Shown piece after piece: positions 37,708 to 41,319 of a stretch of 52,123 bases of DNA. The translations under genes were made by a program, and so were the position numbers. How positions within the stretch are numbered: position 1 is the first letter of the stretch; every line of letters begins with the position of its first letter. Below the pieces are notes generated by a model. The model was given only the letters and a program-made list of their open reading frames with translations. It had not been told where the DNA came from and searched no databases. Origin of the DNA: Bacillota bacterium (GTDB lineage: Bacteria > Bacillota > Bacilli > Alicyclobacillales > SLC66); contig JAJZCL010000001.1 in the NCBI GenBank assembly GCA_021846165.1, positions 1 to 52,123 of the forward strand, read 5' to 3'.

Positions 37708-37783
37708 GCACCCGTAGCTCAGGTGGATAGAGCGGTGGTTTCCTAAACCGCGTCTTGCGGGGGTTCGAGTCCCTCCGGGTGCA
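37708..37783 (+). tRNA. tRNA-Arg (anticodon CCU)
   Basis: GCACCCG-UA-GCUC-AGGUGGAUA-GAGC-G-GUGGU-UUCCUAA-ACCGC-GUCUUGC-GGGGG-UUCGAGU-CCCUC-CGGGUGC-A. The acceptor pairs perfectly. U33 and A37 flank the CCU anticodon. My manual fold leaves an unusual 7-nt variable region. No CCA is encoded. Confidence 0.8.
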
Positions 37784-37802
37784 TTAAAAAATGTTGAAAT
37801 GG

Positions 37803-37840
37803 CGCGGGTTTTCACGATAATGAAGACCCGCGTTTTGTAT
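37803..37840 (+). terminator. Intrinsic terminator of tRNA-Arg
   Basis: CGCGGGUUUUC-ACGAUAAU-GAAGACCCGCG (11 bp including one G-U pair), followed by UUUUGUAU. Confidence 0.8.
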
Positions 37841-38102
37841 TTCGTGAATGATTGTTACTGACGTTCTTAATTGCCTGTAAACTGACGACGTTTATTGTCC
37901 AAATCTTGATAAATATCGTGTCCGACGCTAACCAGTCAAAGTGAACGTCATCCACGATCAGGACGAGTTGGATATGATGAATCGCGCACATCCGTTCGAG
38001 AGGTATCCAGCGTAGTCTGAAATCGGCGAATGGTCGTCGTTTTGCGAGTGCCGCAATCTTTAACATGGTTCGTGCAATGATCTTTCGAAATTGATGAGTC
38101 AT
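37812..38102 (-). pseudogene. Possible relic of an IS200/IS605 Y1 transposase (tnpA-like)
   Basis: The 96-aa ORF has HQFRKIIARTMLKI and IQLVLIVDDVHFDWL...VVSLQAIKNVS. These loosely resemble the KYRRK... and DHVHLL...LKGKSS blocks of TnpA. The 3' end overlaps the tRNA terminator. Weak call. Confidence 0.3.
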
Positions 38103-38226
38103 TTATCAAGTACGTTGTAAAACCCCGCACTTCAGTACTGTGGATATACCCCTACGGGGCACAAAGTAAGACGCTCGCCGTTAGGCGAATCTTTTCTTTT
38201 TACATCCAATATGGTACAAGGTAGCT

Positions 38227-38742
38227 ATGAAAACTTCCAAAGCGTATCGGTTTCGCTTCTACCCGACAGAAGAACAAGCGCAATGACTCTCCCGAATCTT
38301 CGGGGTTGTTCGCTATGTCTACAATTAGGCGTTAAAGCGAAAACGGACGCCTATTACAACTAAGGCCAACGGCTCTATTACAAAGAACTGTCAGCAAAGC
38401 TGACGATACTGAAACAACATCCAGAAACCGTATGGCTGAATGAAGTTTTGAGTGTGGCTTTGCAACAAGAATCGCGACAAAGCCAGAATCAAAGTTGAGA
38501 TGATTCATGCCAAGATTGCCGACCGCCGGCAAGACTCCTTGCACAAACTCACGACACAACTGATCCGCCAGAACCAAGTGATCAGTTTAGAGAGTTTGTA
38601 GGTCAAGAACATGATTCAAAACCACCACTTAGCCAAGTCCATTGCCGATGTAGGCTGGGGCGAACTTGTTAGACAACTCAAATAGAAAGCAGCTAGGTAT
38701 GGGAGAACGGTTGTGAAGATCGACAAGTTGATGGTGATTTAG
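38227..38742 (+). pseudogene. tnpB: TnpB (IS200/IS605 OrfB, RNA-guided-nuclease family) pseudogene
   Basis: MKTSKAYRFRFYPTEEQAQ is followed by a stop at 38284. After frame shifts the sequence continues LSRIFGVVRYVYN / VALQQ / IHAKIADRRQDSLHKLTTQLIRQNQVISLESL(stop)VKNMIQNHHLAKSIADVGWGELVRQLK(stop)KAARYGRTVVKIDK. These are all canonical TnpB blocks, but with stops, frameshifts, a large internal deletion, and no Zn-finger/RuvC C-terminus. Confidence 0.8.
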
Positions 38743-39276
38743 TTAGACATTATGATTTTCACCCTCGTTCTCAGTATCTTCCATTGCAACAGCCGTTTCT
38801 TTTTCAATTTGAATTTGTATATATTCATCATGCTTCGATTCTAATAATTTGAAATCACAGCATAAATACGCCAGTGGGTGTTTACGATTAGAACCTATTT
38901 TGTATACTTCATTTGCTTTTTTGTGAATATCCGATAGGTGTTGATTGCAGAATTTAAGTTCTGAGCGAAGTAAATTGCGATATGATGGAGCTTCCAAGCT
39001 AAAATCTTTCATACGCAAGACTTCATCGAAGGCTGGGAACATGAACGAAAAGCGAATAGAACTGATGGATCTACTCTTGTCTTTAATAATCAGGTTTGTT
39101 CTTTGTGGCGTATGAAAGGAGGAGATGGGTGCGAAATATTGATAGGAGTCGATCATCAATACGACACCGCAGACAAATTTATTATTTGTAGTGTAGCTCA
39201 TTTCTGGAACGTGATTATCAAATTGTTTTAAATATTGAATGTAGTCGTGATCTACTTCATATAATTTAAGCTTCAT
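38743..39276 (-). CDS. toxN: ToxN/AbiQ-family endoribonuclease toxin (type III toxin-antitoxin / abortive infection)
   Basis: 177 aa from ATG 39276 (GAGGTG 9 nt upstream): MKLKLYEVDHDYIQYLKQFDNHVPEMSYTTNNKFVCGVVLMIDSYQYFAPISSFHTPQ...FSFMFPAFDEV...YRNLLRSELKFCNQHLSDIHKKANEVY...CCDFKLLE. It is collinear with my recollection of ToxN and AbiQ (MKFYTISSKYIEYLKEFDDKVP...IGIVLEI.GHKYLAPLTSPK). It is preceded by the tandem-repeat RNA gene. Very AT-rich compared with the flanks. The track ORF (to 39426) wrongly reads into the repeats. Confidence 0.85.
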   Translation of the reverse strand: MKLKLYEVDHDYIQYLKQFDNHVPEMSYTTNNKFVCGVVLMIDSYQYFAPISSFHTPQRTNLIIKDKSRSISSIRFSFMFPAFDEVLRMKDFSLEAPSYRNLLRSELKFCNQHLSDIHKKANEVYKIGSNRKHPLAYLCCDFKLLESKHDEYIQIQIEKETAVAMEDTENEGENHNV

Positions 39277-39320
39277 ATAAAAAGGCACCTCAATATGATC
39301 CGCAACAATTCCTTCAATAT

Positions 39321-39348
39321 AAAAAGGGTTAGAGCATTGCCCCAACCC
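39321..39348 (-). terminator. Hairpin terminator between the repeat array and toxN (probable leaky attenuator setting the antitoxin:toxin ratio)
   Basis: On the minus strand: GGGUUGGGG-CAAUG-CUCUAACCC (9 bp including two G-U pairs), followed by UUUUUAU. It starts within the last 4 nt of the final repeat. Confidence 0.6.
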
Positions 39349-39516
39349 TGCATTAAGCTTCGCACTTTGGAAAGGTAGCGAAACACCCTGCATTAAGCTT
39401 CGCACTTTGGAAAGGTAGCGAAACACCCTGCATTAAGCTTCGCATTTTGGAAAGGTAGCGAAACACCCTGCATTAAGCTTCGCATTTTGGAAAGGCAGCG
39501 AAACACCCTGCATTAA
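39345..39516 (-). ncRNA. toxI: ToxI-like type III antitoxin RNA: 4.3 direct tandem repeats of 40 nt
   Basis: Exact 40-nt period. Units lie at 39345-84, 39385-424, 39425-64 and 39465-504, plus a partial unit at 39505-16. The RNA-sense unit is GUUUCGCUACCUUUCCAAAGUGCGAAGCUUAAUGCAGGGU. Only two variable positions exist across units. There are no spacers. A promoter lies upstream and a terminator plus toxN lie downstream. Confidence 0.85.
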
Positions 39517-39543
39517 AACGCTCAGTGATGCTTTTATCTTCAT

Positions 39544-39572
39544 ATTGTAATGAAAAGACGACGATTTGTCAA
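39544..39572 (-). promoter_or_regulatory. Near-consensus sigma-A promoter driving toxI-toxN
   Basis: On the minus strand: TTGACA (39572-39567), 17 nt (aatcgtcgtcttttcat), TACAAT (39549-39544). It ends about 28 nt upstream of the first (partial) repeat. Confidence 0.75.
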
Positions 39573-39610
39573 TGTGGCCGAGGAAACAACGTTTAAAGTT
39601 AACCCTGCCT

Positions 39611-39649
39611 GTACTTACCCTTGGTACTTACCCTTGGTATTTACCCTCG
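39611..39649. repeat. Three tandem 13-nt repeats upstream of the toxIN promoter
   Basis: gtacttacccttg (39611-23), gtacttacccttg (39624-36), gtatttaccctcg (39637-49). Confidence 0.7.
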
Positions 39650-40110
39650 TCAGTGAGTAAGAGCTTTGTGTCATATCGCAGAGCAGTACCCTCTGTTCAG
39701 ACTCAATCCTCGTCTATGGGTAAGATCCCGAAAATGTTGCGTATCGAAATTGCAATTGCTTCAGATGATATGCCAATAACAAAGCGGTTGTCATGATTTT
39801 CGAAAGAACCTCCTGAAGACTGTGGGTTCGTCCCTCTGGTTCCAACAATTGTAGCAGGAGCGAGAAGCGGACAGACATGCGATCCCGTTCTGACTTTTGT
39901 CTTTCACGCATCTTAGCATGTACAGCGATCACTTCATTTTGGGTTTTATCACTATGATGAACGGAATGAAGCCATGTTGAACTGGGATGAGCCTATTTTT
40001 CTCGTGGTCAAAAGTTCATTTCGCGCGTAAAGATAATTTTAAATCTTCATCCATATAATCGTTGACAATGAATCAATTATCGGCTGTGATTTCCAATCGG
40101 AGGTGCCAAA

Positions 40111-41319
40111 TTGAGTTCGTATAGCTATATTTCGCATTTAGAGTGTTCATTTTGTGGTACTGAGTACAAAGCGGATTCAAACATTCAGATCTGCGCTTCA
40201 TGCGAGCATCCACTTTTTGTTCGATATGACCTTGCTACCATGAAAAAAAGCATTTCCCGTGATGCACTTGCTGACAGACCGCAAAACTTCTGGCGATATC
40301 ATGAACTGTTGCCTGTGTTGCACCAAGAAAACATCGTGTCTATGAACGAACCATTCTCCCCCATTATCAAGCTGTCCGAATCCGGAAGCGATATGGGGAT
40401 CACTAGGTTATTCGCTAAAGACGAAGGTGTATTACCTTCCGGTACGTTTAAGGCTCGCGGCGCATCCATCGGCGTTTCCAAGGCCAAGGAGATAGGGGTG
40501 CGCGCCATCGGCATTCCAACTAACGGGAACGCTGGCGCTGCGTGGGCGCTTTACGCCGCTAAGGCGGGCATTCCCATCACCGTGGTCATGCCGAACACTG
40601 CGCCTGTCACCCCGCAAAAGGAGTGCCTGATTGCAGGCGCCAACCTGTACGTGATCGACGGAACCATTGCGGATGCCGGAAAAACACTCTCCCACATCAT
40701 CGATGCCGATTCGTGGTATGACGTTTCCACGCTCAAGGAACCCTATCGCCTGGAAGGCAAGAAAACGATGGGTTTCGAAATCGCCGAGCAGTTGGGCTGG
40801 AAGGTTCCAGACGTGATCGTTTATCCTACTGGCGGCGGCGCAGGTGTCATCGGAATTTATAAAGCGTTTCAAGAACTTCAGGAGCTTGGGTGGCTGGAAA
40901 AACGCATGCCCCGATTTGTTGTTGTCCAAGCCTCCGGATGCGCACCACTTGTCCGCGCATATGATCGTGGCGATCTGTTTTCTGAGGAGTGGCAAAACCC
41001 AGAAACGATCGCATTTGGCATGCGCGTCCCTAAGGCACTCGGCGACTATCTCATCCTTGACGTGATCAAGCAAACTCACGGCATTGCGATCAGCGTCAAT
41101 GATCGCGCCATTCAAGCGGAACGAGAAAACGTCGTCCGCAAGGACGGATTGCACGCCAGTCCGGAAGGCGCGGCTGGCATTGCGGGAGTGCGCAAGCTGC
41201 GTTCACAAGGTTGGATCCGCCCAGACGATACAGTACTCGTCATGAACACTGGTTCCGGACTCAAATACACAGACCAGATCACCGCCAAACCCAAAGCGTT
41301 TTCCTACTCCACAACGTAA
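40111..41319 (+). CDS. Fold-type-II PLP enzyme, threonine-synthase-like, with N-terminal Cys4 ribbon
   Basis: HLECSFCGTEY....IQICASCEHPLFVRYDL (Zn ribbon), PSGTFKARGAS (PLP lysine), and the VYPTGGGAG glycine loop. TTG start with a GGAGGTG RBS. Substrate cannot be assigned from sequence alone. Confidence 0.75.
   Translation: MSSYSYISHLECSFCGTEYKADSNIQICASCEHPLFVRYDLATMKKSISRDALADRPQNFWRYHELLPVLHQENIVSMNEPFSPIIKLSESGSDMGITRLFAKDEGVLPSGTFKARGASIGVSKAKEIGVRAIGIPTNGNAGAAWALYAAKAGIPITVVMPNTAPVTPQKECLIAGANLYVIDGTIADAGKTLSHIIDADSWYDVSTLKEPYRLEGKKTMGFEIAEQLGWKVPDVIVYPTGGGAGVIGIYKAFQELQELGWLEKRMPRFVVVQASGCAPLVRAYDRGDLFSEEWQNPETIAFGMRVPKALGDYLILDVIKQTHGIAISVNDRAIQAERENVVRKDGLHASPEGAAGIAGVRKLRSQGWIRPDDTVLVMNTGSGLKYTDQITAKPKAFSYSTT

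Follow-up and report, generated by a model that had tools for sequence, protein, structure and literature searches.

A ToxIN-family type III toxin-antitoxin locus with 40-nt toxI repeats in an uncultured member of the Bacillota

Is the short minus-strand locus at positions 38743 to 39572 of contig JAJZCL010000001.1 (assembly GCA_021846165.1), in which a tandem repeat array precedes a gene for a 177-amino-acid (aa) protein, a type III toxin-antitoxin module, and is it one that still works? The stretch analysed here, called the window, comprises 52,123 nucleotides (nt) of this contig. Its host is an uncultured member of the Bacillota; the methionyl-tRNA synthetase is ~65% identical to those of Ferroacidibacillus, Collibacillus, Effusibacillus and Tumebacillus, in agreement with the Firmicute host that an earlier reading of the letters alone (the sequence-only reading) had proposed. 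We conclude that the locus almost certainly belongs to the ToxIN family by structure, and very probably is a module, made up of an RNA antitoxin (toxI) and a toxin gene (toxN), that works as the mechanism proposed for this family; it is also likely that this particular copy is active. Five kinds of evidence were obtained for it, namely layout, toxin family, the pseudoknot of the repeat, RNA similarity to the founding antitoxin ToxI_Pa of Pectobacterium atrosepticum, and purifying selection on the toxin. Type III loci are called from a ToxN homologue and the palindromic terminator and tandem array preceding it, preferably together with a promoter (PMC3401426); all four elements (4/4) are present here, the promoter being preferred rather than strictly required.

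The layout could be read directly and was the same as in the sequence-only reading. Tandem Repeats Finder returned one array at 39345-39516, with a period of 40 nt and 4.3 copies (98% matches, 0% indels, score 323), which agrees with the head-to-tail array described earlier, and a second repeat search of the window also returned a spacing of 40 nt. The 12-nt junction word TTAATGCAGGGT has five exact occurrences on the minus strand, spaced 40 nt apart, against 0.16 expected by chance in the window. The array runs head to tail, free of spacers and with 0% indels, so that the locus is, as had been said, not a clustered regularly interspaced short palindromic repeat (CRISPR) array. In the RNA sense the sequence is CCAAAAUGCG in the two promoter-proximal units and CCAAAGUGCG in the two next to toxN. 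The units vary at two positions only: position 29 is A in the former pair and G in the latter, and position 18 is G in the first unit (CGCUGCC) and A in the others (CGCUACC); direct reading thus confirmed the C/T and T/C differences noted before. Upstream of the array, on the same strand, lies a sigma-70-type promoter, TTGACA-17-TACAAT (39544-39572), which is called from its 11/12 consensus match only and ranks first among six promoter-like sites found over 2.2 kb; transcription is predicted to start ~7 nt downstream, leaving a leader of ~24 nt up to the first repeat junction. Between toxI and toxN stands an intrinsic terminator, AGGGUUGGGGC-AAU-GCUCUAACCCU followed by UUUUU (39320-39349, minus strand), whose 5' arm starts within the partial last repeat. 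Its hairpin (39349-39325) has 11 pairs (6 G-C) and a 3-nt loop and runs into TTTTT; no other terminator-like site in the region is as strong. The folding energy of this hairpin is -16.6 kcal/mol (z = -4.27), and 0/200 shuffles are as stable. The putative ribosome-binding site (RBS) GAGGTG (39286-39291, minus strand) was read directly, 9 nt upstream of the toxN start codon, and toxN itself runs on the minus strand from the ATG at 39276 to the stop codon ending at 38743, full length and without frameshift or internal stop.

The protein encoded by toxN identifies the family. Pfam matched ToxN_toxin (PF13958) to the 177-aa protein at 1.7e-34, over profile positions 1-159 of 159 and from residue 3 onwards, and no other family at E <= 1; the PADLOC AbiQ model matched at 1.1e-30. 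NCBIfam gave no match for the toxin, which is uninformative beside the strong Pfam and PADLOC matches. A sequence search of the PDB matched all four solved members, 4ATO (ToxN_Bt), 2XD0 (ToxN_Pa), 7D8O (ToxN_Ec) and 4GLK (AbiQ), and the same four ranked first (template-modelling (TM) scores 0.67-0.81) when an AF2 model of the toxin, built on 43 homologues with a predicted local distance difference test (pLDDT) of 93.2 and a predicted TM score (pTM) of 0.87, was compared with the PDB by Foldseek. CptN (4RMO) followed with TM 0.53/0.60 and E = 6e-3, and the MazF/Kid structures lay far behind (MazF <= 0.45). Since this fold ranking places the four ToxN/AbiQ structures first, we assign the toxin to the ToxN family and not to CptN or TenpN. 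The profile search and the structural comparison had both been proposed as checks of the ToxN/AbiQ identity given in the sequence-only reading, and both uphold it. The start codon of toxN is aligned with those of its relatives, and the ratio of nonsynonymous to synonymous substitution rates (dN/dS) is 0.18 against an 81%-identical relative, a value that averages over both lineages.

The RNA half of the module depends on where the array is divided into units. ToxI_Ec and ToxI_Pa are cut at GAA|AUUC (PMC8860590). We consider it most likely, from the alignment, that the processed unit of the window starts at AUGCAGGG and that cleavage takes place at UUA|AUG, because the A of AUGCAGGG aligns with A-3 of ToxI_Pa/Ec, the first nucleotide past the cut. 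In this ToxI_Pa-like register the minus-strand array (39345-39516) consists of four full 40-nt units, at 39513-39474, 39473-39434, 39433-39394 and 39393-39354, and a 9-nt partial unit, AUGCAGGGU, at 39353-39345; by homology to GAA|AUUC, the predicted ToxN cuts would fall at 39514/39513, 39474/39473, 39434/39433, 39394/39393 and 39354/39353. Five identical UUA|AUGCAGGGU junctions flank the four full units and align with the cut site of ToxI_Pa/Ec; the last cut site would be supplied by the partial fifth repeat, which overlaps the 5' arm of the terminator. The sequence-only reading had placed AGGGU at the 3' end of the unit (GUUUC...AGGGU), a register in which the helix S1 would join neighbouring units. 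In arrays of dissimilar units, pairing S1 within its own unit gives 65/70 cells paired, 62 of them Watson-Crick, and pairing it with the preceding unit gives 60/70, 50 of them Watson-Crick. The ToxI_Pa-like topology, with AGGGU pairing within its own unit, has our modest preference; the earlier register is modestly disfavoured by these heterogeneous arrays and by the homology to ToxI_Pa, both of which favour a start at AUGCAGGG, and is probably not that of the processed unit. The A/G difference between the first two units (39434-39513) and the last two (39354-39433) concerns the nucleotide that corresponds to G21 of ToxI_Ec, which supplies the G of a U:U:G triple; mutation of the equivalent G in ToxI_Bt lowers antitoxin activity (PMC8860590). 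A at this position is also common among the units of the relatives.

Comparison with related arrays bears on the folding of the unit. The crystal structures of E. coli/Pectobacterium ToxI have a 5' tail (AUUC, -3..0) and a 3' tail (26-32), a helix S1 of four pairs, a second helix S2 and the U:U:G triple; the RNA is cut at GAA|AU (PMC8860590). We transferred the columns of this H-type pseudoknot (S1, 5-9 with 18-22; S2, 12-16 with 33-37) to 28 distinct units from 12 arrays, those of the window and 11 other loci, in the register starting at AUGCAGGG. The pseudoknot was 97.1% paired over 278 cells in the 28 units, and none of 500 shuffles reached the observed pairing or covariation score; double-sided changes occurred in 17 cells, compared with 3.3 in shuffles. 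Among the compensatory changes, G-C is replaced by A-U at 8/19 and 15/34 and by A-U or U-A at 6/21, and sliding the 3' partners by 1-3 columns lowered pairing to 40-56%. With ToxI_Pa added, 95.9% of cells were paired and 5/10 pairs were compensatory. The pseudoknot of the clade repeat is, at the level of sequence, supported by this comparison, and the helices backed by covariation across relatives are those that had been proposed from the window alone, GUUUCGC/GCGAAGC and AGGGU/ACCUU. S2 is extendable to the seven pairs GUUUCGC/GCGAAGC in the window genome and not in most relatives; the change of A18 to G in unit 1 turns U9-A18 into a U-G wobble and keeps the pairing. Because the variation consists of compensatory changes and of indels not divisible by three, the repeats are under RNA-structure rather than codon constraint.

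The same alignment links the window repeat to the founding antitoxin. The 36-nt ToxI_Pa unit cited in the sequence-only reading is found exactly on plasmid pECA1039 (NC_011767.1), and the 40-nt unit aligns with it, as had been proposed. A covariance model of the clade (R1), which was built without any Pectobacterium sequence and scores 56-58 bits per window unit (self-hits by construction), matches the ToxI_Pa units of pECA1039 in their exact 36-nt register; on the 2.5-kb pECA1039 locus, three matches with E = 0.0086 and one with 0.017 were top-ranked and in phase. We read the kinship of the window repeat with ToxI_Pa at the RNA level as real but distant. Antitoxins diverge between members of the family, and sequence kinship to the founding ToxI is no requirement for membership. 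Rfam gave no match on the repeats of the window at E <= 10, and Rfam 15 gave none on the genuine ToxI_Pa array of pECA1039; we had considered the silence of Rfam as a sign of repeat divergence and rejected this, as Rfam is equally silent on the true array. That no Rfam model detects even the founding ToxI implies that such loci are systematically under-annotated, and the 28 units from 12 arrays, with their natural compensatory changes, could seed an RNA family model.

The layout is shared by the relatives of the toxin. The closest protein in the databases, with 81% identity, is encoded on a contig of 687 bp (L007); the next relatives are 50-60% identical. DNA was examined for nine of the toxin relatives, and all those with enough upstream sequence carry a tandem array that repeats every 39-41 nt, with units clearly resembling those of the window. 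Eight independent loci (toxins 50-60% identical) and two viral contigs have the same layout with a homologous repeat of 35-42 nt: a promoter, 2-3 units starting with AUGCAGGG..., a partial (U)UAAUGCA, a hairpin with a T-run, an RBS and toxN. The hairpin and T-run occupy the terminator position in all, and TTGACA...TATAAT-like boxes stand at the equivalent promoter position; L007 has the GAGGTG RBS, and other relatives have GGAG/GGGG boxes at equal spacing. A pattern scan of the viral collection found the two complete loci L020 and L023, a toxin search of the genome-contig collection found three distant relatives (25-37%), and the window locus itself is 100% identical on contigs of two further samples (L005 and L006).

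Within some of these arrays (L011:2822-2952, L013:2824-2952, L014:2828-2951 and L020:498-620) the units differ substantially from one another, as where GGGAGAUUCACUGCCC...GUGUGAGG stands beside AGGUGAUUCGCCACCUU...GUGCGAGG, and the compensatory pairs are kept unit by unit; the four units of the window, in comparison, are 98% identical. L014 has a 35-nt unit, the nearest to ToxI_Pa in length and sequence.

We propose a mechanism for the locus that follows the one described for the family. A constitutive promoter would transcribe the four 40-nt toxI repeats; most transcripts would end at the hairpin whose 5' arm begins in the partial fifth repeat, with only a minority reading through into toxN, this leakiness being assumed by analogy with the family (PMC3401426). 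ToxN, a sequence-specific endoribonuclease, would cleave the repeat transcript at the five UUA|AUGCAGGG junctions and free 40-nt RNAs, each of which would fold as an H-type pseudoknot (S1 AGGGU/ACCUU, S2 UUCGC/GCGAA). The single-stranded tails of these RNAs would fill the active sites of ToxN and keep the toxin in an inactive RNA-protein ring. If transcription of the locus collapsed, as might happen when a phage infects the cell or the DNA is lost, the supply of the labile RNA would cease, and free ToxN would cleave cellular and phage RNAs, leading to growth arrest. Processing, inhibition, cut position and trigger are modelled here on the family, and a role in abortive infection (Abi) is suggested by what its members do.

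The genomic setting of the module is a small island. The locus lies in a 2.3-kb low-GC stretch (37784-40110; 35-45% compared with a background of ~52%), which runs from a tRNA-Arg(CCT) gene (37708-37783) to a PALP-family gene at 40111 and contains only toxIN, a TnpB remnant and non-coding DNA. The remnant, a pseudogene of the IS200/IS605 family (38227-38742, plus strand; HTH_OrfB_IS605 4e-16, OrfB_IS605 1e-9), is interrupted by six in-frame stops and has lost an internal segment. It converges with toxN and breaks off exactly at the stop codon of that gene; at the DNA level it comes closest to tnpB on a plasmid of Alicyclobacillus sp. TC (72% identity). No att-like direct repeats of the tRNA-Arg 3' end were found bounding the island, and at the DNA level the plasmid collection held no plasmid with this toxIN, only the TnpB remnant being matched. 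The flanking genes are metabolic (an acyl-CoA synthetase-like gene, an aldehyde dehydrogenase and an aminotransferase). Synteny with L013, where Aldedh and Aminotran_3 genes also lie beside toxIN, was rejected: order and orientation differ, and there is no DNA similarity beyond toxIN. A 13-nt tandem repeat, GTACTTACCCTTG x 3 (two exact, one 85%), occurs at 39611-39649, 40-75 nt upstream of the -35 box of toxIN; every unit holds an imperfect GGTAnnTACC palindrome, and no counterpart was seen upstream of the relatives' promoters. It could be an operator or a remnant.

The repeat of this clade is also found apart from any toxin. Two phage contigs of IMG/VR carry an orphan 39-nt clade repeat, at L019:5300-5397 (plus strand; two full units and a truncated one) and L024:2465-2523 (minus strand; one full unit and a truncated one), and single units occur on L021:1931-1979 and L022:1260-1300. 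L019 and L024 share flanking sequence and differ by one copy of the repeat, and no ToxN was detectable anywhere on either contig. On both, the repeat lies between a 167-aa open reading frame (ORF) and the gene for a 512-aa protein, on L019 upstream of the latter; to the eye this protein looks terminase-like. The pseudo-ToxI of Pectobacterium phage PhiTE is reportedly a case in which repeat expansion lets the phage escape ToxIN. By analogy, the orphan phage repeats may be an antitoxin mimic of the same kind, and they hint at counter-pressure from phages on the clade.

Three other explanations of the locus were weighed. That the repeats are coding sequence, an N-terminal extension of a longer protein, has next to no chance of being right. 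The frame is indeed open through the array, as a mechanical ORF of 227 aa from the GTG at 39426 and as the deposited gene call of 216 aa (P0001, 38743-39393, minus strand), which starts inside the repeat array. Such an extension, however, would cross the 11-bp terminator hairpin and its T-run, all close relatives start at a Met aligned with the ATG at 39276, which has its own RBS, and the Pfam match sets in at residue 3 of the 177-aa protein; the variation among repeats, moreover, takes the form of compensatory pairs and of length differences (35-42 nt) not divisible by three. An equal artefact exists on pECA1039, where RefSeq puts a 'hypothetical protein' coding sequence over the genuine ToxI array (L018:1172-1393). 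The warning that protein-only annotation swallows the antitoxin proved apt for both the 227-aa ORF and the public call: the antitoxin escapes protein-based pipelines, and the deposited toxin call is over-extended through the terminator into the repeats. Granted that toxI is an RNA, its toxin could still be attenuated or inactive, the locus being toxIN in structure and otherwise a relic, domesticated or in decay, within a degraded mobile island, with no defence or addiction phenotype. Several observations weigh against a working module and, where they concern the active site and the island, speak for such a relic. The residue aligned with the catalytic Lys55 of ToxN_Pa/Ec is His (SSFHT; APISSFHTPQRTN); the locus had been called intact, which is shown for ORF, array, promoter and terminator but not for this position. 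The Lys55Ala change abolishes the toxicity of ToxN_Ec (PMC8860590), and Lys or Arg is present at positions 54-57 in 41/42 aligned relatives, including Lys55 in the nearest one, whereas the window protein has neither there and, like the exception P0010, keeps only Arg59 nearby. The adjoining TnpB is decayed, with its six in-frame stops and its truncation at the toxN stop codon, and the island has no other intact gene. On the RNA side, repeat position 11 is U in the window, where 26/28 clade units other than the window's have A (L015_u1 also has U); its counterpart in ToxI, A6, is in contact with ToxN in the complex of E. coli. The folding energy of single units is no better than that of shuffles (z -0.2 to -0.6; S2 is recovered), which we do not count against the structure because the energy model excludes pseudoknots, and each match of R1 to ToxI_Pa is weak (10.5 bits), with a rough E-value calibration. 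Against a relic stand the full-length toxN without frameshift or stop, the low dN/dS towards the 81% relative, averaged though it is over both lineages, the intact promoter (11/12), RBS and terminator, and four repeats that are 98% identical and keep every pseudoknot pair, which would be unexpected if the antitoxin were dispensable. Moreover, K33, G37, A49, P50, S52 and S53 are conserved in the toxin alignment, among them three of the catalytic residues of ToxN (Lys33, Thr/Ser52 and Ser53, beside Lys55, in the numbering of ToxN_Pa/Ec). Residue 52 shares its Ser with AbiQ, whose key catalytic residue is Ser51 and which tolerates Thr in that place (PMC5086642). The equivalence to Lys55 is itself uncertain, because the loop after the catalytic Ser is ~7 residues shorter in the whole clade and variable across the family (SSFK, SSFNK, SHxxxK), and because two relatives, P0011 and P0021, also lack Lys at 55-57. 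His can act as a general acid or base in RNases. From the alignment, His55 or Arg59 may take over from the catalytic Lys, and the His at this position appears to be a caveat on activity, not evidence of inactivation. We therefore regard the relic as very unlikely.

The module could, on the other hand, be active and serve mainly as an addiction or stabilisation element of the tRNA-adjacent island, or be without current benefit to the host, rather than act in Abi defence. The 2.3-kb low-GC stretch beside tRNA-Arg(CCT), with its IS200/IS605 TnpB remnant, the flanking genes, which are metabolic and not of defence, and the ability of type III systems to stabilise plasmids also (PMC3401426) are consistent with this. 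ToxIN_Pa, ToxIN_Bt-type systems and AbiQ, however, either came to light as Abi systems or were shown to be such (PMC3401426, PMC5086642); clade members occur in prophage-like contexts (L011, L012, L016, L020 and L023), and the orphan phage repeats on L019 and L024 have the signature of antitoxin-mimic counter-defence, which would imply phage pressure. Addiction and defence are, in addition, not mutually exclusive roles, and we hold an addiction-only or neutral module to be rather unlikely. A ToxIN-family module that works in the manner of its relatives remains our preferred reading.

A further reading concerns the clade as a whole. Taken jointly, the window locus and its relatives would form a distinct ToxIN subfamily, defined by a ToxI of ~40 nt with lengthened S1, S2 and loop 2, the cut context UUA|AUG, and a toxin with a shorter loop after the catalytic Ser, without the Trp57 region and, in this genome, with His55; the clade would perhaps be engaged in an active arms race with phages whose orphan mimic arrays of its repeat vary in copy number (L019 and L024). 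We find this combination doubtful. If it were true, catalysis, specificity or the stoichiometry of the complex might not be those of the solved ToxIN triangles. A specialist might wish to follow up two points only, the His at the Lys55 position and the orphan repeats borne by phages. A ToxIN on the chromosome of an uncultured lineage related to the Alicyclobacillaceae is an addition to the known distribution.

How, then, does the locus compare with known systems? In layout and size it is typical. Type III loci are found mainly in Firmicutes, Fusobacteria and Proteobacteria (PMC3401426, PMC5086642), and a survey of 2012 listed 67 toxIN loci, mostly chromosomal, with repeats of 31-62 nt (mean 38.1; PMC3401426), copy numbers of 1.9-5.6 and toxins of 168 aa on average (PMC3401426, PMC5086642). 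With 40 nt, 4.3 copies and 177 aa, the window locus is mid-range; the suggestion that it represents a 40-nt-period variant does not stand, because the surveyed ranges (31-62 nt, 1.9-5.6 copies; PMC3401426) already cover it. The closest parallel in organisation is ToxIN_Pa of pECA1039, to which the E. coli ToxIN is near-identical (structures 2XD0/2XDB/2XDD and 7D8O). Promoter, tandem repeats, partial repeat, terminator and toxN come in equal order, and the Pfam family and the fold of the toxin are common to both. The repeats share AU.C.GGUGAUU.GCUACC.UU..AAGUGC.AG..UA, and the window keeps S1, S2, the invariant G after S1, the U...U pair positions and the junction A|AU. The unit is 40 nt long in the window compared with 36 nt in ToxI_Pa (4.3 versus 5.5 copies), because it has one more S1 pair, ~3 more nucleotides in loop 2 and 2 more in S2, less a 3' tail that is 2 nt shorter. 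The toxin is only 28% identical to ToxN_Pa, a deletion of ~7 residues removes the Trp57 region from its loop, and it has His for Lys55 and Ser for T52; the predicted cut context is UUA|AUG rather than GAA|AUU. ToxIN_Pa is carried on a small enterobacterial plasmid, whereas the window locus lies on a chromosomal island of a Bacillota metagenome-assembled genome.

Among solved structures the best match of the window toxin is ToxN_Bt of Bacillus thuringiensis (4ATO; phmmer 1.7e-10, Foldseek TM 0.77/0.81), and both hosts are Bacillota, although identity is ~23% over the structural alignment and ToxN_Bt has Arg after the catalytic TS where the window toxin has His. The ToxIN_Bt repeat is 34 nt long and present in 2.9 copies. 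ToxN_Bt cuts A|AAAA (PMC5086642), a motif absent from the repeat junctions of the window, and AbiQ cuts A|AAA. AbiQ/antiQ of Lactococcus lactis (4GLK) resembles the window system in its PADLOC AbiQ match (1.1e-30), its fold (Foldseek TM 0.74/0.79) and its catalytic Ser in place of Thr, with low sequence similarity (phmmer 9.5e-08). In CptIN and TenpIN, too, tandem RNA repeats and a terminator go together with a toxin that is an endoribonuclease with a Kid/MazF-like core; the window locus belongs to ToxIN and not to these, because ToxN_toxin is the sole Pfam match of its toxin and CptN (4RMO, TM 0.53/0.60) is a weaker structural match. The locus thus adds an ordinary member to a well-known type of system and leaves the knowledge of type III systems unchanged.

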